A DNA stretch of 60,216 bases, the filler included. It is 8 parts of 8 records of this genome, joined end to end, with 100 filler letters (N's around TTAATTAATTAA, not from the genome) between each part and the next. Parts side by side here need not be neighbours in the genome. Positions count along the whole stretch, not along the records: positions 54,524 to 60,216 come from SRR31147125_17939; 7 more parts are not named here. The stretch is one strand, 5' to 3'. The notes below the pieces were generated by a model. The model did not search any database, was not told the DNA's origin, and saw only the letters and a program-made list of their open reading frames with translations. Both the position numbers and the translations under genes were made by a program. Each line of letters begins with the position of its first letter. Position 1 is the first letter of the stretch. Positions 5,070-60,216 of this stretch are shown here, one piece after another.

Positions 5070-5169
5070 NNNNNNNNNNNNNNNNNNNNNNNNNNNNNNN
5101 NNNNNNNNNNNNNTTAATTAATTAANNNNNNNNNNNNNNNNNNNNNNNNNNNNNNNNNNNNNNNNNNNN
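5070..5169. other. Artificial contig spacer
   Basis: 100 bp: N-run + TTAATTAATTAA (stop in all six frames) + N-run. Confidence 0.99.
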
Positions 5170-13235: not shown

Positions 13236-13335
13236 NNNNNNNNNNNNNNNNNNNNNNNNNNNNNNNNNNNNNNNNNNNNTTAATTAATTAANNNNNNNNN
13301 NNNNNNNNNNNNNNNNNNNNNNNNNNNNNNNNNNN
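13236..13335. other. Artificial contig spacer
   Basis: N-run + TTAATTAATTAA + N-run. Confidence 0.99.
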
Positions 13336-21245: not shown

Positions 21246-21345
21246 NNNNNNNNNNNNNNNNNNNNNNNNNNNNNNNNNNNNNNNNNNNNTTAATTAATTA
21301 ANNNNNNNNNNNNNNNNNNNNNNNNNNNNNNNNNNNNNNNNNNNN
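21246..21345. other. Artificial contig spacer
   Basis: N-run + TTAATTAATTAA + N-run. Confidence 0.99.
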
Positions 21346-34193: not shown

Positions 34194-34293
34194 NNNNNNN
34201 NNNNNNNNNNNNNNNNNNNNNNNNNNNNNNNNNNNNNTTAATTAATTAANNNNNNNNNNNNNNNNNNNNNNNNNNNNNNNNNNNNNNNNNNNN
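34194..34293. other. Artificial contig spacer
   Basis: N-run + TTAATTAATTAA + N-run. Confidence 0.99.
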
Positions 34294-40850: not shown

Positions 40851-40950
40851 NNNNNNNNNNNNNNNNNNNNNNNNNNNNNNNNNNNNNNNNNNNNTTAATT
40901 AATTAANNNNNNNNNNNNNNNNNNNNNNNNNNNNNNNNNNNNNNNNNNNN
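40851..40950. other. Artificial contig spacer
   Basis: N-run + TTAATTAATTAA + N-run. Confidence 0.99.
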
Positions 40951-45985: not shown

Positions 45986-46085
45986 NNNNNNNNNNNNNNN
46001 NNNNNNNNNNNNNNNNNNNNNNNNNNNNNTTAATTAATTAANNNNNNNNNNNNNNNNNNNNNNNNNNNNNNNNNNNNNNNNNNNN
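45986..46085. other. Artificial contig spacer
   Basis: N-run + TTAATTAATTAA + N-run. Confidence 0.99.
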
Positions 46086-53050: not shown

Positions 53051-54423
53051 ATGGTCACAAGAAAATGGATAACGTGCCTGATCGCCTGCATGATTCTAAC
53101 AAGTCACTTTCTTGTTGCAGAAACGAAAAAGGAAATTCAAAATATGAATTGGGATAACTATTTTAATTTAGATACAACAAAAAAAGAGCCGGTAGATTTT
53201 GTCAACATGAAAATTGGCGCGATCAGCCATACACTCCAGCCAACCCGGCCAACTATACATTTGCCCAATAGCATGGTCCGTCTGTTACCAGTATGGACGC
53301 CTGGTATTTCGGACTGGTATGCAGCGTCAAAAATCTATGGATTTTCATTAAATGTGCCAGCTCATCGCGGCCAGGCAGTGACAACGCTTATGGCCACCAC
53401 AGGTGATTTGACTTTGGATAAGGAAAAAATTGCTTCTAATATCGATCACGATTTTGAATTACTATCACCCTACCATTATGCTGTATTGCTTGAAGATAGT
53501 AAAATTATCGCCGAATACACACCGGCAGCCAGATCAGCACTGTTTCAATTCATGGCTACAAATAATGGTATCACAAACATTATATTCAGATGTAAAAAGA
53601 ATGGATTTATCGAATGGCTGGATGATTCCACTGTTCGCGGTTTCGAAGTATATCATGGTACTAAACAATATTTTTACGCCAAATTGAGTCGTTCAAGTTC
53701 GGACCTGGCAACTTTTTCTCAGGATGCTCTATTGCAAAAGGATAAAACTATAGAGGGCGACTCTATAGGAGCTGTCTCCAGAATTCCACTTTTAGCTGGT
53801 GACAAGGTTTTAGTAAAATCTGGTATTTCATTTATCAGTATGGAGCAAGCAGAAAAAAACGTAAAAACAGAACTGCCAACCTGGGATTTTGAGTCAGCAC
53901 AAAATAACGCCAGGGATATATGGAATGAAACACTTGGTAAAATAAGTATCACTTCAAAAAATGAAGCACAAAAACGTGTCTTTTACTCGGCATTTTATCG
54001 ATGTTTCGAAAGAATGGTAAATATCACTGAAGACGACCAGTATTATAGCGCCTACGATCAGCAGATACACCAGGATTCCCGTCCTTTTTACGTTGACGAT
54101 TGGGTATGGGATACATATCGGACAGTACATCCGTTACGGTTGCTCCTTTTTCCGCAATTGGAACAAGACATGATTCAATCCTTCATTCGCATGTACGAGC
54201 AAAGTGGCTGGATGCCCACTTTTCCGCAGATTTATGGAGATATGAAAGCCATGATCGGCCACCATCAGGCAGCGCTGATTGCAGATACTTATTTGAAAGG
54301 TTACCGTGATTTTGATATTAAAAAAGCTTATGAAGGTCTGAAAAAAAATGCCACAGAAGGAACAATGATCCCATGGAATGAGGGTCCTGCAACGGAGCTG
54401 GACAAGGTGTATCGGGAAAAAGG
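53051..54423 (+). CDS. GH92 alpha-mannosidase-like protein (3'-truncated)
   Basis: PVDFVN, GISFISMEQA, FYSAFYR, WDTYRTVHPL, GWMP...MIGHH. Confidence 0.87.
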
Positions 54424-54523
54424 NNNNNNNNNNNNNNNNNNNNNNNNNNNNNNNNNNNNNNNNNNNNTTAATTAATTAANNNNNNNNNNNNNNNNNNNNN
54501 NNNNNNNNNNNNNNNNNNNNNNN
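54424..54523. other. Artificial contig spacer
   Basis: N-run + TTAATTAATTAA + N-run. Confidence 0.99.
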
Positions 54524-56554
54524 TTTTCTTTTAAATATGGTCGGGTATTGTTTGTTTCAATTAACAGTAATTATCAGCTTCACAATGCCACGCAAATTGA
54601 ATGGCTTGACAGTCTGTTAAGCAATGCTCAGCAAGATAGTACTATAGATTGGATAATCTCATTCTGTCATCATCCCGGGCATAGCGAATTGTGGCCTGAT
54701 GGAAATACAGTGTATATTCAAGATTTGGTAATCCCTACATTAAATAAATACAGCAAAGCAGATATTATTATGTACGGTCATTCGCATAATTATGAAAGAG
54801 GAACCGTACCGGATGGCAACCTGCGACTTTTATTACAAGGTGGTGCCGGTTCCAATCTGGATCGCTGGGGAATGTATGGTAACCAACAAAATTATCCGGA
54901 AATTCAGAAATCCTTTGACCATTATGGTTATACAATTTTTGATATAGATATTGCCAATAAACGTTATACAGCAAAATCTTACAGTTTTGGGCATACAAAT
55001 ATATTCTTTGATAACCTCCTTATTGATGAGTTTTATCGGGATAAAAAAGACGAAACGCAACCGGATAAACCAGCACTTTTATCTCCGGAAGCAGGTACAG
55101 AAGTGGCATCTTCCGTTTTGCTAAAAGCGTCATCTTTTACTGGTTCCCATCCCTTTATGAGTTCACAATTTCAGGTTACTAAAAATAAAGGTGATTATTC
55201 AACTCCTTATATGAATGTTATTAGGGATTTTGAAGACATTTTTTGGGATGATGGAACTGTGGATTACACACCCATAGACCTGAATGTTGATGTTGATTTA
55301 ACCGAAATCCAGTTTGAAAGCAAAAATGAAAAGCCTGGGACAAAATTCTGGTGGCGCGTACGATATCGTGATAAAAATGTGCAGTGGTCAGAATGGTCTG
55401 AGGAAAAGTCCTTTTCTTTACAAAAGAGGACTGATTCGGGTGAACCTAATGATTCGCCTCAAACAGCATCAACCTTATTTATTGCAGATAGCTTGTCAGC
55501 CAGTTTTGAATCTGCATCAGATGTTGACTGGTATCGGTTTTATTTTGATGCGCTGTGTATGTATTATTTCACTTCAATTGAGAGTACGCCCGGAGTGGAA
55601 CCAGGTATCGAATTATATCATGAAAGTGATTTAACTACAAACATGTTATCTACATCAGTAAGTGGACTTAATGATGCCGGTGATTTTCGTCTCGCAGGAT
55701 TTTTTCCCTCAAAAGCTGGTTATTATTATGCGAAAGTAACCAATACCAAAGCGAATACGGGAAATTATAAAATAAGACTTGTAGGCGGCAGATCAACAAA
55801 AGAATTATTTGTTAATGAATTCGATAATTCTCCCTCAGGCATAATGGATAAACCGGCATTTCTGCCAAATGATACTCTGGCTGCTGCTATCTTTCCCAAA
55901 GACGATGCCGATTATTACAGGATTGAGGGTCAGCAGGGATGGTGGTTTGAGGTTGGTACAACACCGGTTTATGGCCTTGGCAATCGCGATACTGATACAT
56001 TTATAACGTTGTTTGATGAATCACAAAATCAACTTTACGAAAATGATAACAGGGGAGAGGAGACTACACCAACTGGAGAGACACAGGAAAATACATTTTC
56101 AAGGATCCAGGGCGTTTTTCCTTATACTGGTTTATACTTTTTAAAAGTTCGATCCAGATATAACGCAGATAATAGCGAGAATGATGAGGCACATCCGTTT
56201 TTAGGCGAATATGGTGTTTATTTTAAAACATCTCAGGAAACCGGCATTGAGTTGGATGAGAGTTACCAAACACCAACTACTTATCAACTTTATCAAAATT
56301 ATCCAAATCCTTTTAATCCTGAAACGCAGGTAAAGTTCGATTTACCAAAGAATTCCCATGTTATTTTTAAAGTTTATGATGTCATGGGACGTGAAATACA
56401 GACTCTTCGGGATTCCGAGCTGCAAGCCGGGATTCATGCCATTACATGGAATGGTACAAATGTAAATGGAGAACACGTGACCAGTGGTATTTATATTATT
56501 AGAATGTCAACTCCCGAGTTCTCTAAATCCATCAAGGTGACCCTGCTTCGCTAG
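54524..56554 (+). CDS. Secreted purple-acid-phosphatase-like metallophosphoesterase with Fn3-like and PPC-like domains and C-terminal sorting domain (5'-truncated)
   Basis: QIEWL, FCHHP, YGHSHNYER, GGAG; WWRVRY...WSEWS; EPND...DVDWY and DADYY repeats; YQNYPNPFNP...SGIY tail. Confidence 0.8.
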   Translation, partial: FSFKYGRVLFVSINSNYQLHNATQIEWLDSLLSNAQQDSTIDWIISFCHHPGHSELWPDGNTVYIQDLVIPTLNKYSKADIIMYGHSHNYERGTVPDGNLRLLLQGGAGSNLDRWGMYGNQQNYPEIQKSFDHYGYTIFDIDIANKRYTAKSYSFGHTNIFFDNLLIDEFYRDKKDETQPDKPALLSPEAGTEVASSVLLKASSFTGSHPFMSSQFQVTKNKGDYSTPYMNVIRDFEDIFWDDGTVDYTPIDLNVDVDLTEIQFESKNEKPGTKFWWRVRYRDKNVQWSEWSEEKSFSLQKRTDSGEPNDSPQTASTLFIADSLSASFESASDVDWYRFYFDALCMYYFTSIESTPGVEPGIELYHESDLTTNMLSTSVSGLNDAGDFRLAGFFPSKAGYYYAKVTNTKANTGNYKIRLVGGRSTKELFVNEFDNSPSGIMDKPAFLPNDTLAAAIFPKDDADYYRIEGQQGWWFEVGTTPVYGLGNRDTDTFITLFDESQNQLYENDNRGEETTPTGETQENTFSRIQGVFPYTGLYFLKVRSRYNADNSENDEAHPFLGEYGVYFKTSQETGIELDESYQTPTTYQLYQNYPNPFNPETQVKFDLPKNSHVIFKVYDVMGREIQTLRDSELQAGIHAITWNGTNVNGEHVTSGIYIIRMSTPEFSKSIKVTLLR

Positions 56555-56572
56555 GATGTGATAGTGATATAG

Positions 56573-57849
56573 ATGCATTGTTTTCTGTTCGGTGCCTGCA
56601 GTATGTGGCCGGCGCGTAAAAAGGTGAAAGATCAAGTTAAATTAGTGAAATCCAAAACGCCAACAATAGATCGAGTACGATACGAATCCTTTGGTGGAAT
56701 TGTGTCCTGTCTGGATCCACCTTTCCTTGCCTGGGTGGATCGATCGTTTATGAAAAATATCGGGTACAATCATTCATCCATATGGGATAACGATGATAAT
56801 GGTTATCTTTCCGCCCCAACAGAAGTCCATTTTGCCGTAACAAACACGTGTTCTCAGGGCTGCCAGGGCTGTTATATGTCGTCCCGGTCAAATAATGAAA
56901 ATGAGCTGTCACTCGAACAGATCAAAAATATTTTATTAAAATTTCGGGAAATGGGTGTTTTTCATGTTGCGCTCGGTGGGGGGGAGGCATTTGAAAGAAC
57001 CGATTTTGGTGAGATTGTTGCCTATTGCCGTCACATCGGATTAGTACCGAATTTGACAACGAACGGCCAGAATATTGGAGAGAAAGAACTCAATATCTGC
57101 AAACAGTTGGGCCAGGTGAATATATCCATGGATGGTCTGGATGAAATGTATTCTGTAAATGGACGGCAAGGTGGTTTTGAAATAGCCGATAGCGCCATTC
57201 AAATGCTCAGATTATCAGATATCCCGGTTGGAATAAATTGTACTGTCTCGAAAAAGAATTTTAATCACCTGAAAGAGATTATCGCGTATGCTGCAAAACG
57301 CGGTTTAAACGAAATTGAGTTTCTAAAATACAAACCATCGGGCAGGGGAAAGAGTAATTATAACGAATTCGCACTTTCGCAGGAAATGATTCGGAGTTTA
57401 TATCCTTTACTTATGCAGTTTGGCGATTTATACTCTGTTGAAGTAAAAATTGATTGTTCCTTTATACCTGCACTGGTTTTTCATCATCCTCCAAAAGATG
57501 AGCTGGAAAAACTGGCTGTGACCGGATGCGATGGTGGAAATTTGTTGCTTGGCGTAAAAAGTAATGGCATGTTCTCAGCCTGCTCTTTTGTCGAGAATAA
57601 CGAGGACGTAAATAATATTAATTATTTCTGGCATTCGTCACCACATTTAAGATTTTTTCGAAACTGGACGTCGACAGCACCAGAACCATGCAGATCCTGT
57701 GACTATCTCATGATCTGTCGGGGAGGCTGTCGTGCCGTGGCCCTGCATCTCACAGGCAGTTTTGAAAACCAGACCCGGAATGCCCTTTTGTTTATGATTA
57801 TTTATTAGAAAAGAAAAGCAATGAAAGACACAAAACTGGAACTCCCTGA
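56573..57849 (+). CDS. Radical SAM/SPASM enzyme; 1-nt indel at ~57765-57770 (start may be a GTG at 56624 or 56645)
   Basis: CSQGCQGC, GGGEA, TTNG, ISMDG; SPASM GCDGG...ACSF...CRSCDYLMICRGGCRA; restoring one base gives PDPECP and a stop at 57849 (track ORF ends 57808). Confidence 0.92.
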
Positions 57850-58009
57850 GGGCGTTTTAAAAATTAAAAAAGGGTATAATCCAAATTCCAGCAGTATCGG
57901 TACGATATTGTATTCATTTCCTTTGGTATTATCCGCTCTTGGCGCAATTTTATCCGCAATTGTCGTTTTCCTTAAAAAAGACAAAAAGAAACAACATGAT
58001 AAAAATTAG
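57821..58009 (+). CDS. 62-aa peptide: GYNPNSSS motif + TM helix + basic tail; candidate radical SAM substrate
   Basis: MKDTKLELPEGVLKIKKGYNPNSSSIGTILYSFPLVLSALGAILSAIVVFLKKDKKKQHDKN; overlaps both neighbours. Confidence 0.72.
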   Translation: MKDTKLELPEGVLKIKKGYNPNSSSIGTILYSFPLVLSALGAILSAIVVFLKKDKKKQHDKN

Positions 58010-59396
58010 ATTTTTGATTTTCCTGAGCTTTTTAACAGGATTTATTTTTACTTACAAATCAGATTGTATGGCACATGCACCGATAGAAACTGATGTGGTC
58101 AAAGATTCTTTATCCAAAAATATCGATGCAGAAATTATAAAAGCTTTTAAAAAGCCTTTCCCATATTGCCGGGCAAAGCAACATCTCACACTTTTACATC
58201 TACTTGAAAGGGGAAATGTTCCTTCCAAATTTATTATTTCTGCTGATTCTCTGGAAAACCTCATTGAACCTGTTGTAGCAAATAAAAATATCCAAAAGAA
58301 TTTTATTAATAATATTTTATTGTTTTCTCTGACGCAAGATGAATCCAGTGACAGGTCCTGTAATGCCCTTATAACAGCTGCTGGTATCGCGCAACATAAT
58401 ATGTACGATCCTGAATTGGCGTTAAAAATTTACGAGCTGGCTGATAAAAATGGATGCGATGCAGCACAAGATTCCATCGTGGTTGTCAAAAAGTATATGC
58501 ATGATAATAGTCACATAATCAATATTCTAAACGTCAATTATGTGCAAAACAATACAGCAGAATTGCAGGATTATTTTAAAGCATTGGAAAAATCCTTATC
58601 TGATTATTCCAATAGCGATCTTTTGGATGAAGTTAGACTACGACTGGGCGATATTGCCTATATACTAAATGACCATAAAGGAATTGTTAAATATTATCGC
58701 CAGGTCATGAGCAGCAATCTCGAGTCTGAAAGAGCAAAAGAAATATCATCAAGATGTGAGTTAGCCATAGGAAAGATTCGCCACCAGCGGCTTTCATTCT
58801 TGTTTATTGTCGGATATATTTTATCTTTTTTTATTATGCTACTCCGTTTTAGAAATGGACAAGGATTTGATACAGCATATTTTATTAAAAATACAGTGAT
58901 TTTATTATTTATCTATATTTTATTAAGCATCCTTGTTCTGGTATTAGATCAAAAGTTGTCTGCAGGTTTTTTGTCAGGTTGGCTGCAATCGGAGAAGGTG
59001 GTTTTAAAAGAACCGATCATTTTATTGAATTTTTATGAAATCCTTCCGCAAAAGATTTTGATAAACATGCTATTATTAGGATTTATACCGGTTCTATATG
59101 CCCTTTTTTATATTTCTTTTAAAAAATCACATTCAAAAATATTATTGTTATCAAGCCTTATAATTCTTGTTTCATCCATCTGGCTTCATTTTTCTCTAAA
59201 TTATATTTTTGATGACAAAATGAATCCCAAAGGTATTATGACAACGTCACGATTTTATTTCAATGGGAACATTGATCTCATTATCGACAAAGATCCCGGC
59301 ATCCTGATAAACGCTGTAAAAAATGAGCCAGATGAAGTAAAGATGAAAGTGAAAAGAATGATCGAAAAACACTTGGCGAAAAAGAAAGAGGAATAA
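57996..59396 (+). CDS. Hypothetical exported helical/TPR-like protein with ~4 C-terminal TM helices
   Basis: Signal-like MIKIRFLIFLSFLTGF; DYSNSDLLDEVRLRLGDIAY...YY TPR-like segment; four hydrophobic segments. Confidence 0.7.
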   Translation: MIKIRFLIFLSFLTGFIFTYKSDCMAHAPIETDVVKDSLSKNIDAEIIKAFKKPFPYCRAKQHLTLLHLLERGNVPSKFIISADSLENLIEPVVANKNIQKNFINNILLFSLTQDESSDRSCNALITAAGIAQHNMYDPELALKIYELADKNGCDAAQDSIVVVKKYMHDNSHIINILNVNYVQNNTAELQDYFKALEKSLSDYSNSDLLDEVRLRLGDIAYILNDHKGIVKYYRQVMSSNLESERAKEISSRCELAIGKIRHQRLSFLFIVGYILSFFIMLLRFRNGQGFDTAYFIKNTVILLFIYILLSILVLVLDQKLSAGFLSGWLQSEKVVLKEPIILLNFYEILPQKILINMLLLGFIPVLYALFYISFKKSHSKILLLSSLIILVSSIWLHFSLNYIFDDKMNPKGIMTTSRFYFNGNIDLIIDKDPGILINAVKNEPDEVKMKVKRMIEKHLAKKKEE

Positions 59397-59573
59397 AAAA
59401 AGGAAAATCAGATAAAAGGTCCTGTTTCTCTTGAGTAATTGACAAGTTGGTTTAAAACTCGACGCTATTATCACTGAACACCGATTTTTCTTTATTATAA
59501 ATTGGTAAACCTTCCTGGTTTAAGAGTCTTTCACTTTTTTATCAAACAAATCCCTATTAGAGGCTTCCTATCG

Positions 59574-60216
59574 ATGAAATTCGTTCTTTCAATTGATCAG
59601 GGAACAACAGGTACAAGAGCTCTTTTGGTTAGTGAAAAATGTGAAATTCTTTGCAGTAGCTACAAAGAGCACAGACAAATTTATCCACAACCGGGTTGGG
59701 TTGAACATGATCCAATGGAAATTTGGGAAAATACAAAACAGGTTGTGGAAGACGTTCTGAAAGAGGCAAATTCTTTTGGTATAATTATGGGAGATATCAA
59801 AGGTATTGGTATTGCCAATCAGGGCGAAACCGTCATGGTATGGAATAAAAGGACCGGGCTGCCGTTGTATAATGCCATTGTATGGCAATGTCGGAGAACA
59901 TCCACTTATGTAGATCTGCTTAAGCAGTGCCCTGGTTTTGAAAAATTGGTTAGAGAAAAATCCGGACTTGTTCTTGATTCTTATTTTTCGGCCTCAAAAA
60001 TAAAATGGATCATTGAGAACGTCCCTGGAGTTGCAAAAGGTATAGATGAAAACAGGGTTCTTGCTGGAACGCTGGATTCATGGCTTATTTGGAAAATGAC
60101 CGGGGGAATATCATTTTTAACAGATCCTTCCACAGCATCGCGAACAATGCTATTTAATATCAATTCGCTAAAATGGGACGAAACGCTTCTAGTGTCATGT
60201 CAAGTTAAATATGTTG
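59574..60216 (+). CDS. glpK: Glycerol kinase (3'-truncated; not in ORF track)
   Basis: MKFVLSIDQGTTGTRA, QIYPQPGWVEHDP, NQGET, NAIVWQCRRT, YFSASKIKW, GTLDSWL, TDPSTASRTMLFN. Confidence 0.92.
   Translation, partial: MKFVLSIDQGTTGTRALLVSEKCEILCSSYKEHRQIYPQPGWVEHDPMEIWENTKQVVEDVLKEANSFGIIMGDIKGIGIANQGETVMVWNKRTGLPLYNAIVWQCRRTSTYVDLLKQCPGFEKLVREKSGLVLDSYFSASKIKWIIENVPGVAKGIDENRVLAGTLDSWLIWKMTGGISFLTDPSTASRTMLFNINSLKWDETLLVSCQVKYV

Follow-up and report, generated by a model that had tools for sequence, protein, structure and literature searches.

Near the end of the window, by which we mean the whole 60,216-nt stretch of DNA that was analyzed, three genes on the plus strand encode a radical S-adenosylmethionine (SAM) enzyme with a SPASM domain, a 62-aa single-pass membrane mini-protein carrying the loop GYNPNSSS, and a tetratricopeptide repeat (TPR)-like membrane protein. 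The trio is best explained as the minimal, Fibrobacterota-type version of an unnamed system that is widespread. At least 8 separate draft-genome contigs make up the window, joined by seven identical linkers (5070–5169, 13236–13335, 21246–21345, 34194–34293, 40851–40950, 45986–46085, and 54424–54523), each consisting of 44 N, TTAATTAATTAA, and 44 N, the 12-mer between the N runs being an artificial six-frame-stop linker. Because the linkers split the window, genes on opposite sides of a linker are not true neighbors and open reading frames (ORFs) that enter the N runs are truncated; the contig bearing the system begins at 54524, and upstream of 54424 the window holds none of its true neighbors. 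The three ORFs extend from 56573 to 57808 (411 aa, as deposited), from 57821 to 58009 (62 aa), and from an ATG at 57996 to 59396 (466 aa). An earlier note, made from the letters of this stretch, had described them as three genes that overlap end to start, and this arrangement was borne out once the enzyme gene was extended to its proper stop at 57849: the mini-protein gene starts 29 nt inside the end of the enzyme gene, and the third gene starts 14 nt inside the end of the mini-protein gene.

As deposited, the enzyme ORF terminates in ...SFENQTRNALLFMIIY, an odd end. After position ~57766, the +1 frame reads KPDPECPFVYDYLLEKKSNERHKTGTP up to a TGA stop at 57847–57849, in agreement with the end of the nearest homolog, P0001 (91% identity), which is ...FENPDPECPFVYDYYLEKRSDER, and it is this agreement that shows one base to be missing from the gene, as the earlier note had read it. 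More distant homologs likewise terminate in ...F(D/E)xPDPECP.... Sequencing run X1, which holds 97% of the sampled words of 57300–58300 and is probably the source sample, provides a comparison independent of the assembly and not of the sample. Its contig covers all of 57300–58300 at a mean word depth of 34.9 and differs from the window over these 1001 nt only by an A inserted behind 57764 (depth 34.9 of 34.9), the homopolymer site at 57764–57768 being A4 in the window and A5 in the X1 contig, so that the deposited run at 57765–57768 is one A short. With five A's the contig reads ...LTGSFEKPDPECPFVYDY... (FEKPDPEC), by which both the frame and the last SPASM cysteine are regained. The frameshift is an assembly error, and because the X1 contig restores the frame, the gene is very probably intact in the organism. 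Placement of the missing base in the CC run at 57769–57770 was considered and rejected, the X1 contig putting it in the A run. A second run, X2, contained only a 165-nt piece of the stretch, and position 57764 falls outside it. The true start is probably GTG 56645 and not ATG 56573, since homologs open with MKSKTPTIDR; the gene would then occupy 56645–57849.

Membership of the enzyme in the radical SAM superfamily is evident from PF04055 (63.2 bits against a cut-off of 29.5) and from the motif CSQGCQGC. The CxxxCxxC signature and complete SPASM cysteine set that had been predicted for the repaired gene are both present: an alignment of 77 relatives shows no variation at the radical SAM cysteines C69, C73, and C76 or at five further cysteines of the C-terminal half (C271, C295, C313, and others through C380), and the last of these eight is the one regained in the X1 contig. 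Assignment to the SPASM class follows from the ortholog of locus L061, which scores 44.2 against a cut-off of 27 for TIGR04085, a family in which 7–8 cysteines are expected for two auxiliary 4Fe-4S clusters; PF13186 stayed below threshold on the deposited, frameshifted ORF (13.4 against 21.5). Within this class, the window ORF reached no curated NCBIfam cut-off. The highest score was for MftC (TIGR03962; 128.2 bits, and 145.4 for the L061 ortholog, against 265), followed by the GeoRSP radical SAM family (TIGR04303; 121.7 against 400), AhbD (TIGR04545; 106.2 against 500), PqqE (TIGR02109; 102.5 against 381), NirJ (TIGR04051; 94.9 against 515), and MoaA (74 against 325). The prospect raised in the earlier note, that the enzyme might cluster with NirJ/Ahb heme-biosynthesis enzymes or another characterized family, thus finds no support in these scores, every one of which is far under its cut-off. 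A word-based search retrieved 1054 homologous proteins at E ≤ 0.001 among 3960 candidates; the public labels among the homologs listed for the enzyme and the mini-protein are "radical SAM protein" and "hypothetical protein". By eye, the enzyme sequence has no signal sequence.

Structure prediction gives the enzyme the fold of the maturases of peptides that are made on ribosomes and modified after translation (RiPPs). In the AlphaFold2 model of P0001 (predicted local distance difference test, pLDDT, 96.2), a small N-terminal unit of three beta-strands (residues 10–14, 17–23, and 26–32) and short helices precedes the core. The best fold match is SuiB (Foldseek E 5e-20; VIA-align Z 31.4, root-mean-square deviation 3.5 Å over 368 aligned residues, model residues 4–382) and the second is SkfB (Z 27.9). 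Among solved structures, those closest in sequence are PqqE (1.3e-19), SkfB (2.1e-18), and SuiB (2.3e-8; phmmer E-values). Only the SuiB and SkfB alignments cover the N-terminal unit; PqqE, CteB, anSME, ChlB, and TigE align from about residue 50. Because of these fold matches and the N-terminal alignment to SuiB and SkfB, the modeled enzyme resembles a peptide maturase that has a reduced recognition element.

The mini-protein gene at 57821–58009 is a real, conserved gene. All 91 NPNSSS ORFs recovered from the loci described below share one plan, in which a basic N-terminal stretch is followed by K-x-G-Y-N-P-N-S-S-S-x-G, one hydrophobic helix, and a short tail. The window peptide has a basic N-segment, the invariant loop, a transmembrane (TM) helix at about residues 26–52, and a Lys-rich tail, with invariant columns at K16, G18, Y19, N20, P21, N22, S23, S24, S25, and G27. 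Across the 91 ORFs, K(−4) and G(−2) are kept in 91/91 and G(+7) in 90/91, while the residue preceding NPNSSS is Tyr in 86, Phe in 3, Val in 1, and Thr in 1. The conserved block lies 4–20 residues from the N-terminus and abuts the TM helix directly, and among 75 sequences the net charge of the N-segment ranges from +1 to +9 (median +5). Cys is absent from the peptide, and Trp from the window copy. All or most synonymous codons are used at each invariant residue, and the third base agrees in just 43% of same-residue codon pairs; because codon use is this free, conservation acts on the protein and not on an RNA or DNA element. In the Ser triplet, the first Ser is encoded by TCN in 91/91, the second by AGY in 86/91, and the third by both sets, a codon pattern suggesting that the first two (S23 and S24) are more tightly constrained than the third (S25).

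Database searches gave a similar picture of a distinct family. The window mini-protein has 59 close homologs of 55–75 aa, and a profile built from 75 members, searched against 1.84 billion proteins, matched 508 representative clusters with E ≤ 0.001, of which 241 had E ≤ 1e-10, so that the conservation on which the earlier note had made its reading depend is plainly there. Nearly all of the 150 clusters listed of these 508 have lengths of 54–130 aa. Three long matches resembling fusions (P0230, P0185, and P0265) look like over-extended ORF calls. The window mini-protein matched no NCBIfam 20.0 family at E ≤ 0.1 and, in Pfam-A, gave only a sub-threshold chance match to CcmH (12.6 against 25), and its orthologs from L009 and L061 had no matches in NCBIfam or Pfam. 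An atlas look-up returned unnamed or TPR-labeled clusters with scores ≤0.86, which we treat as leads only. A scan of the window with the back-translated pattern GYNPNSSS found one exact match, the loop codons at 57872–57895 on the plus strand, which mark the presumed modification site; a search tolerating up to two mismatches gave 2 matches, where 0.17 would be expected.

We next consider how consistently the enzyme and mini-protein occur together. A one-genome-per-species scan yielded 400 candidate stretches, 332 of them with a relative of the radical SAM enzyme, and the best 80 of these 332 were made into loci. According to record titles, the 80 loci span over a dozen phylum-level groups, including Fibrobacterota/Chitinivibrionales, Ca. 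Raymondbacteria, Desulfobacterales, Geobacter relatives, Nitrospirota/Thermodesulfovibrionales, Acidobacteriota-type metagenome-assembled genomes/Aminicenantes, Planctomycetota, Spirochaetales, Clostridia, Bacteroidales/Cytophagia, Lentisphaeria, Kiritimatiellota, Myxococcota, Elusimicrobia, and Hydrogenedentes; Desulfobacter curvatus DSM 3379 and Geomesophilobacter sediminis Red875 are cultured carriers. An NPNSSS ORF lies on the enzyme strand in 71 of the 80 loci, amounting to 91 such ORFs altogether, which agrees with the adjacency that had been expected of close enzyme homologs. Two more loci (L037 and L038) have a mini-protein copy cut by a contig end, and in another two (L071 and L080) the contig is cut too near the enzyme for the mini-protein to be judged. 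In the Fibrobacterota-type loci L001–L007, the mini-protein is downstream of the enzyme in 7/7, as in the window.

Two genome samples show the same pairing without reference to adjacency. Among 201 genomes of the class of D. curvatus, the mini-protein was found in 6 and the enzyme ortholog in 5 (490–576 bits, against 200 bits for the next best), all 5 being among the 6. Among 151 genomes of the Fibrobacterota-related phylum of L001, the numbers were 10 and 9, with all 9 among the 10. When the samples are pooled (352 genomes), the enzyme ortholog is present in 14 and the mini-protein in 14/14 of these; the samples include 1 and 4 seed genomes, respectively, and removing the seeds leaves 4/4 and 5/5. 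The two genomes with the mini-protein only are drafts, and one of the two matches is 1.6 kb away from the end of its contig. The system therefore has a patchy distribution, being present in ~3–7% of sampled genomes, yet its enzyme and peptide come paired. In five whole genomes of 4.7–7.7 Mb, the motif pattern occurred 3, 0, 2, 1, and 3 times, 9 in all, against 0 for the reversed control. Two extra copies off the main locus again lie within modules of the same type, so that such modules account for the only genomic matches to the pattern. The trio of the earlier note is thus real; its scope was understated there, as the system, far from being a local oddity, occurs across many phyla and comes with additional modules.

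Three subtypes of mini-protein can be distinguished, and each is followed by a fixed gene, usually with an overlap of 4 nt. Type B, to which the window copy belongs, is followed by a TPR and multi-TM protein (37/91), type A by a TlpA/ResA-like protein (18/91), and type C by the radical SAM enzyme itself (21/91); of the remainder, 1 precedes a member of a HupE-like cluster and 14 are at contig edges or could not be resolved. The third gene had been proposed as a partner of the pair, and its place directly after the mini-protein in 37/91, including the subtype of the window, agrees with that role. All-against-all clustering of the proteins encoded at the 80 loci identified four recurrent neighbors: the TPR and multi-TM protein of ~420 aa (61/80 loci); a mixed thioredoxin-like/metallophosphoesterase cluster (52 loci, with a member of at least 300 aa in 47); a ~205-aa protein with a weak DUF2950 match (27 loci); and a HupE/UreJ_2 membrane protein group (25 loci), the last two annotated by Pfam on one representative each. 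No protease or exporter cluster is among the recurrent neighbors of the 80 loci, which extends to the whole set the earlier remark that no protease or ABC exporter is adjacent in the window, and no heme or molybdopterin genes are among them either.

For the third protein of the window (57996–59396, plus strand), the ATG at 57996 agrees with the start of P0180 (82% identity), and a word-based search found 2 homologous proteins only. Because homologs are few, the alignment used for structure prediction was 8 rows deep, and confidence is low in the TM half of the AlphaFold2 model: overall pLDDT is 66.5, with 80–93 in a helical-repeat domain at about residues 43–240. The predicted parts are an N-terminal signal or anchor helix, the repeat domain, four TM helices, and a helical C-terminal tail. 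Foldseek gave weak matches to TPR proteins (E 0.03–0.2), among them SprE, BamD, and LapB (E 0.03–0.05), and no PDB match at E ≤ 0.001. The window protein has no Pfam match, relatives in other phyla match TPR_2, TPR_1, and TPR_8 near threshold, and the atlas look-up again produced unnamed or TPR-labeled clusters (scores ≤0.90; leads only). It clusters directly with Fibrobacterota-type relatives only (6 loci including the window), and its family profile aligns with that of the 61-locus TPR and multi-TM family (hhalign 97.7%, E 2e-12, 202 columns). We also considered a hydrolase with a Ser/His/Asp triad, given that S380, W396, and H398 are invariant in 8 Fibrobacterota-type sequences, and dropped the idea because these residues, inspected by eye in one example sequence of the other-phylum family, are not conserved there.

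The window holds the minimal trio of the system. A fuller operon is found in D. curvatus, where the order is mini-protein A, TlpA/ResA-like protein, a 796-aa fusion, mini-protein B, TPR and multi-TM protein, enzyme, and 205-aa protein. The type A module (L061, 422–3435) encodes a TlpA/ResA-like protein with the motif WCNYC and, as read by eye, a lipoprotein-like signal. The fusion combines a purple-acid-phosphatase-like domain, a thioredoxin-like segment with CPFC, and a CcdA/DsbD-like TM domain (GLNPC..., FTCTGQ; motifs by eye); the joining of a phosphoesterase to a thiol-disulfide membrane transporter is unusual. Extra modules are found elsewhere: L088 has an additional mini-protein and partner module away from the radical SAM gene, and in the genome of L067, at L089 1341–2742 (minus strand), a different radical SAM/SPASM gene, part of which reads as N, lies directly upstream of an additional type A module composed of a mini-protein, a TlpA-like gene, and a metallophosphoesterase. 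Geobacter- and Nitrospirota-type loci (L011 6177–7409, L047 7968–10382, and L043 2507–3136) add a HupE/UreJ_2 protein with a large N-terminal domain, together with a TonB-dependent receptor and a small secreted protein with a PEP-CTERM-like C-terminus, which hints at a tie to metal uptake or the envelope.

In the window itself, the gene upstream of the trio (54524–56554, plus strand), cut at the contig start, encodes a purple-acid-phosphatase-like metallophosphoesterase (Pfam: C-terminal end of Metallophos, FlgD_ig, and Por_Secre_tail) that has a C-terminal type IX secretion system sorting domain and ends 18 nt before the enzyme ORF. This protein may belong to the system as an accessory, a link that is tentative because the match to the system phosphoesterases is weak (best tblastn E 6.8e-9, 30% identity over ~140 aa). 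Downstream, an ORF at 59502–60216 that starts MKFVLSIDQGTTGTRALL is presumably, from its sequence pattern, a glycerol kinase-like protein of the FGGY family and probably unrelated to the system. A 474-aa ORF at 53051–54423 enters a linker and is therefore cut by its contig end. Scans for regulatory sites were uninformative, with 20 promoter-like sites against 11.7 expected and a lone terminator-like match that falls within the peptide ORF.

From these findings, we consider it fairly probable that the enzyme modifies the cytoplasmic NPNSSS loop of the mini-protein and that the product stays in the membrane. In this proposal, a cytoplasmic radical SAM/SPASM enzyme would recognize the short basic N-segment of a single-pass mini-protein. 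This stretch, which reads GVLKIKK in the window and G-R-I-L-K-I-K in other phyla, would probably pair as a beta-strand with the enzyme's three-stranded N-terminal sheet. The loop would lie on the cytoplasmic side of the membrane, immediately ahead of the TM helix, and one of its N-P-N-S-S-S residues would be the site of hydrogen abstraction and radical modification. An N-in orientation is favored because the N-segment is strongly basic. The modified mini-protein would be neither cut out nor exported; it probably stays anchored, because no protease or exporter recurs, and would work with the protein encoded directly downstream, here the TPR protein with four TM helices. As to the chemistry, thioethers are ruled out because the mini-protein has no Cys, and a Tyr-derived quinone or a Lys-Tyr link is disfavored as a universal reaction because the Tyr is replaceable. 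Possible reactions are Ser oxidation, epimerization, or a C–C or C–O cross-link within the loop.

Several observations weigh against this proposal. Five loci whose flanks are usable (L023, L044, L051, L062, and L066) have a relative of the enzyme (~44–46% identity) and no mini-protein in the fetched DNA, and the L023 genome contains zero matches to GYNPNSSS. The lack of Cys together with a Tyr that is replaced by F, V, or T in 5/91 leaves none of the well-known SPASM chemistries assignable. Fibrobacterota-type peptides are basic at both ends (N +6, C +3), which makes their topology less certain. Finally, two or three paralogous mini-proteins often share a single enzyme, each being linked with a different envelope protein, a pattern that an adaptor role would also fit.

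That adaptor role is the main rival. The mini-protein would then be a membrane tether or specificity subunit and not a substrate, its loop docking the enzyme beside the TPR and multi-TM protein or the TlpA/CcdA-phosphoesterase module, and the enzyme would act on another target, such as a lipid, a quinone-like molecule, or a partner protein. Consistent with a tether are the three subtypes with their fixed partners, the module away from the enzyme gene in L088, and the presence among the fold matches of GDGT-MAS, a radical SAM enzyme that acts on lipids (Z ~20). The closest relatives by sequence and fold, however, are the peptide maturases SuiB, SkfB, PqqE, CteB, and anSME; the N-terminal sheet is similar to the part of SuiB that binds the peptide; and a loop of 10 invariant residues would be expected of a modification site more than of a docking tag. 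On balance we consider a tether unlikely.

More speculatively, the modified mini-protein could be a membrane-anchored, never-released, peptide-derived prosthetic subunit, made in the cytoplasmic loop and passed to different envelope machines, with each paralog serving its own co-translated partner: the TPR and multi-TM protein, or a TlpA/CcdA-like thiol-redox module fused to a purple-acid-phosphatase-like enzyme. We offer this with little confidence; if true, anaerobes of many phyla would couple cytoplasmic radical chemistry to periplasmic or surface enzymes by an unrecognized route.

It is more doubtful still that the locus makes a classical released RiPP, in which the modified N-terminal or loop region would be cleaved off the TM helix to give a diffusible product or cofactor like PQQ (pyrroloquinoline quinone) or mycofactocin. 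The best NCBIfam matches do include MftC and PqqE, though far under their cut-offs, but the 80 loci show no recurrent protease, PqqF/MftE-like peptidase, or exporter, the conserved block lies just 4–20 residues from the N-terminus and abuts the TM helix, and the Tyr is not invariant. We attach very little weight to the window copy being a decaying pseudogene cluster, inactive in its organism through a real frameshift; the deposited sequence does have a 1-nt deletion that costs the last SPASM Cys, but the X1 contig, otherwise identical over 1001 nt, has the additional A at depth 34.9, and both remaining genes are intact, with full-length alignments to relatives. Least credible of all is a cofactor-biosynthesis enzyme of the NirJ/AhbD/MoaA type with the small ORF as a coincidental neighbor, since these families, though they appear in the NCBIfam list, score far under their cut-offs (106 against 500 for AhbD, 95 against 515 for NirJ, and 74 against 325 for MoaA), the enzyme co-occurs almost perfectly with the mini-protein, and heme and molybdopterin genes are not among the recurrent neighbors.

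Returning to the proposal of a modified, membrane-retained mini-protein, the system appears to be an unstudied protein-modification system of anaerobic bacteria from many phyla. A full-text literature search, which did not extend to the supplements of RiPP-mining studies, found the NPNSSS motif in no paper and variants of it only in one unrelated antibody paper; a keyword search gave no match describing a system of SPASM enzyme, TM helix, and TPR protein, and PMC10352776 concerns other Bacteroidales clusters. Pairs of a radical SAM/SPASM enzyme and a small peptide have repeatedly given new chemistry or cofactors, among them PQQ, mycofactocin, streptide, and the sactipeptides. The present pair is unusually well defined by its ten-residue, (nearly) invariant block, its single TM helix, and its near-perfect co-occurrence with one enzyme family, and a membrane-retained substrate wired to envelope proteins would, if the proposal is right, be a new use of the radical SAM/SPASM class. 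New in this analysis are the recognition of the frameshift as an artefact, the division of the peptides into three subtypes with a fixed partner each, the module of thiol-redox and phosphoesterase proteins, and the co-occurrence counts.

The system works like the known radical SAM/SPASM-peptide pairs built on SuiB, MftC, PqqE, and QhpD, yet it falls outside the definition of each. The streptide system is the nearest in structure: SuiB/StrB (PDB 5v1q/5v1s/5v1t) is the best structural match (model residues 4–382 against chain residues 2–439), it has a full SPASM domain with two auxiliary clusters and an adjacent small peptide gene (SuiA/StrA), and its N-terminal peptide-recognition region overlaps the three-stranded sheet of the model. 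Unlike SuiB, the enzyme described here has an N-terminal domain of ~50 residues and not a full RiPP recognition element, and identity between the two is just 17–18% (phmmer E 2.3e-8). Streptide is a secreted macrocycle, and the substrate motif of streptide-type maturases is Lys...Trp; the mini-protein, without Trp in the window copy and with a TM helix, has no leader-cleavage or export genes beside it and, at this level of identity, does not belong to the streptide type.

With mycofactocin and PQQ biosynthesis the system shares a radical SAM/SPASM enzyme with a small ribosomal peptide encoded alongside, and MftC and PqqE are, respectively, the top NCBIfam match (128 bits) and the top solved sequence (1.3e-19; 103 bits in NCBIfam). 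It differs from both in having no separate PqqD/MftB gene among the recurrent neighbor clusters and in a mini-protein that consists of an N-terminal loop followed by a TM helix. The precursor motifs of those two systems, a C-terminal Gly-Val-Tyr and a Glu...Tyr pair, are both absent from the mini-protein.

Two further systems come closer in logic. QhpC, the gamma subunit of quinohemoprotein amine dehydrogenase, is a small protein that is modified by the radical SAM/SPASM enzyme QhpD and kept as a subunit of an envelope complex, which is similar to what we propose. QhpD makes thioethers from Cys to Asp or Glu, and QhpC is exported to the periplasm; the mini-protein, in contrast, lacks Cys and is membrane-anchored, and no dehydrogenase subunits are encoded nearby. 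The anaerobic sulfatase-maturating enzyme anSME acts on the motif (C/S)-x-(P/A)-x-R, which is not present in the mini-protein; it has no N-terminal sheet (its alignment starts from model residue 56), and no sulfatase lies near the window system. Like the enzyme described here, anSME has the SPASM fold (Z ~24), and the Ser or Cys that it modifies sits in a short conserved motif, the protein itself being retained, a parallel that makes oxidation at the Ser C-beta one candidate chemistry for the invariant Ser triplet of the NPNSSS loop.

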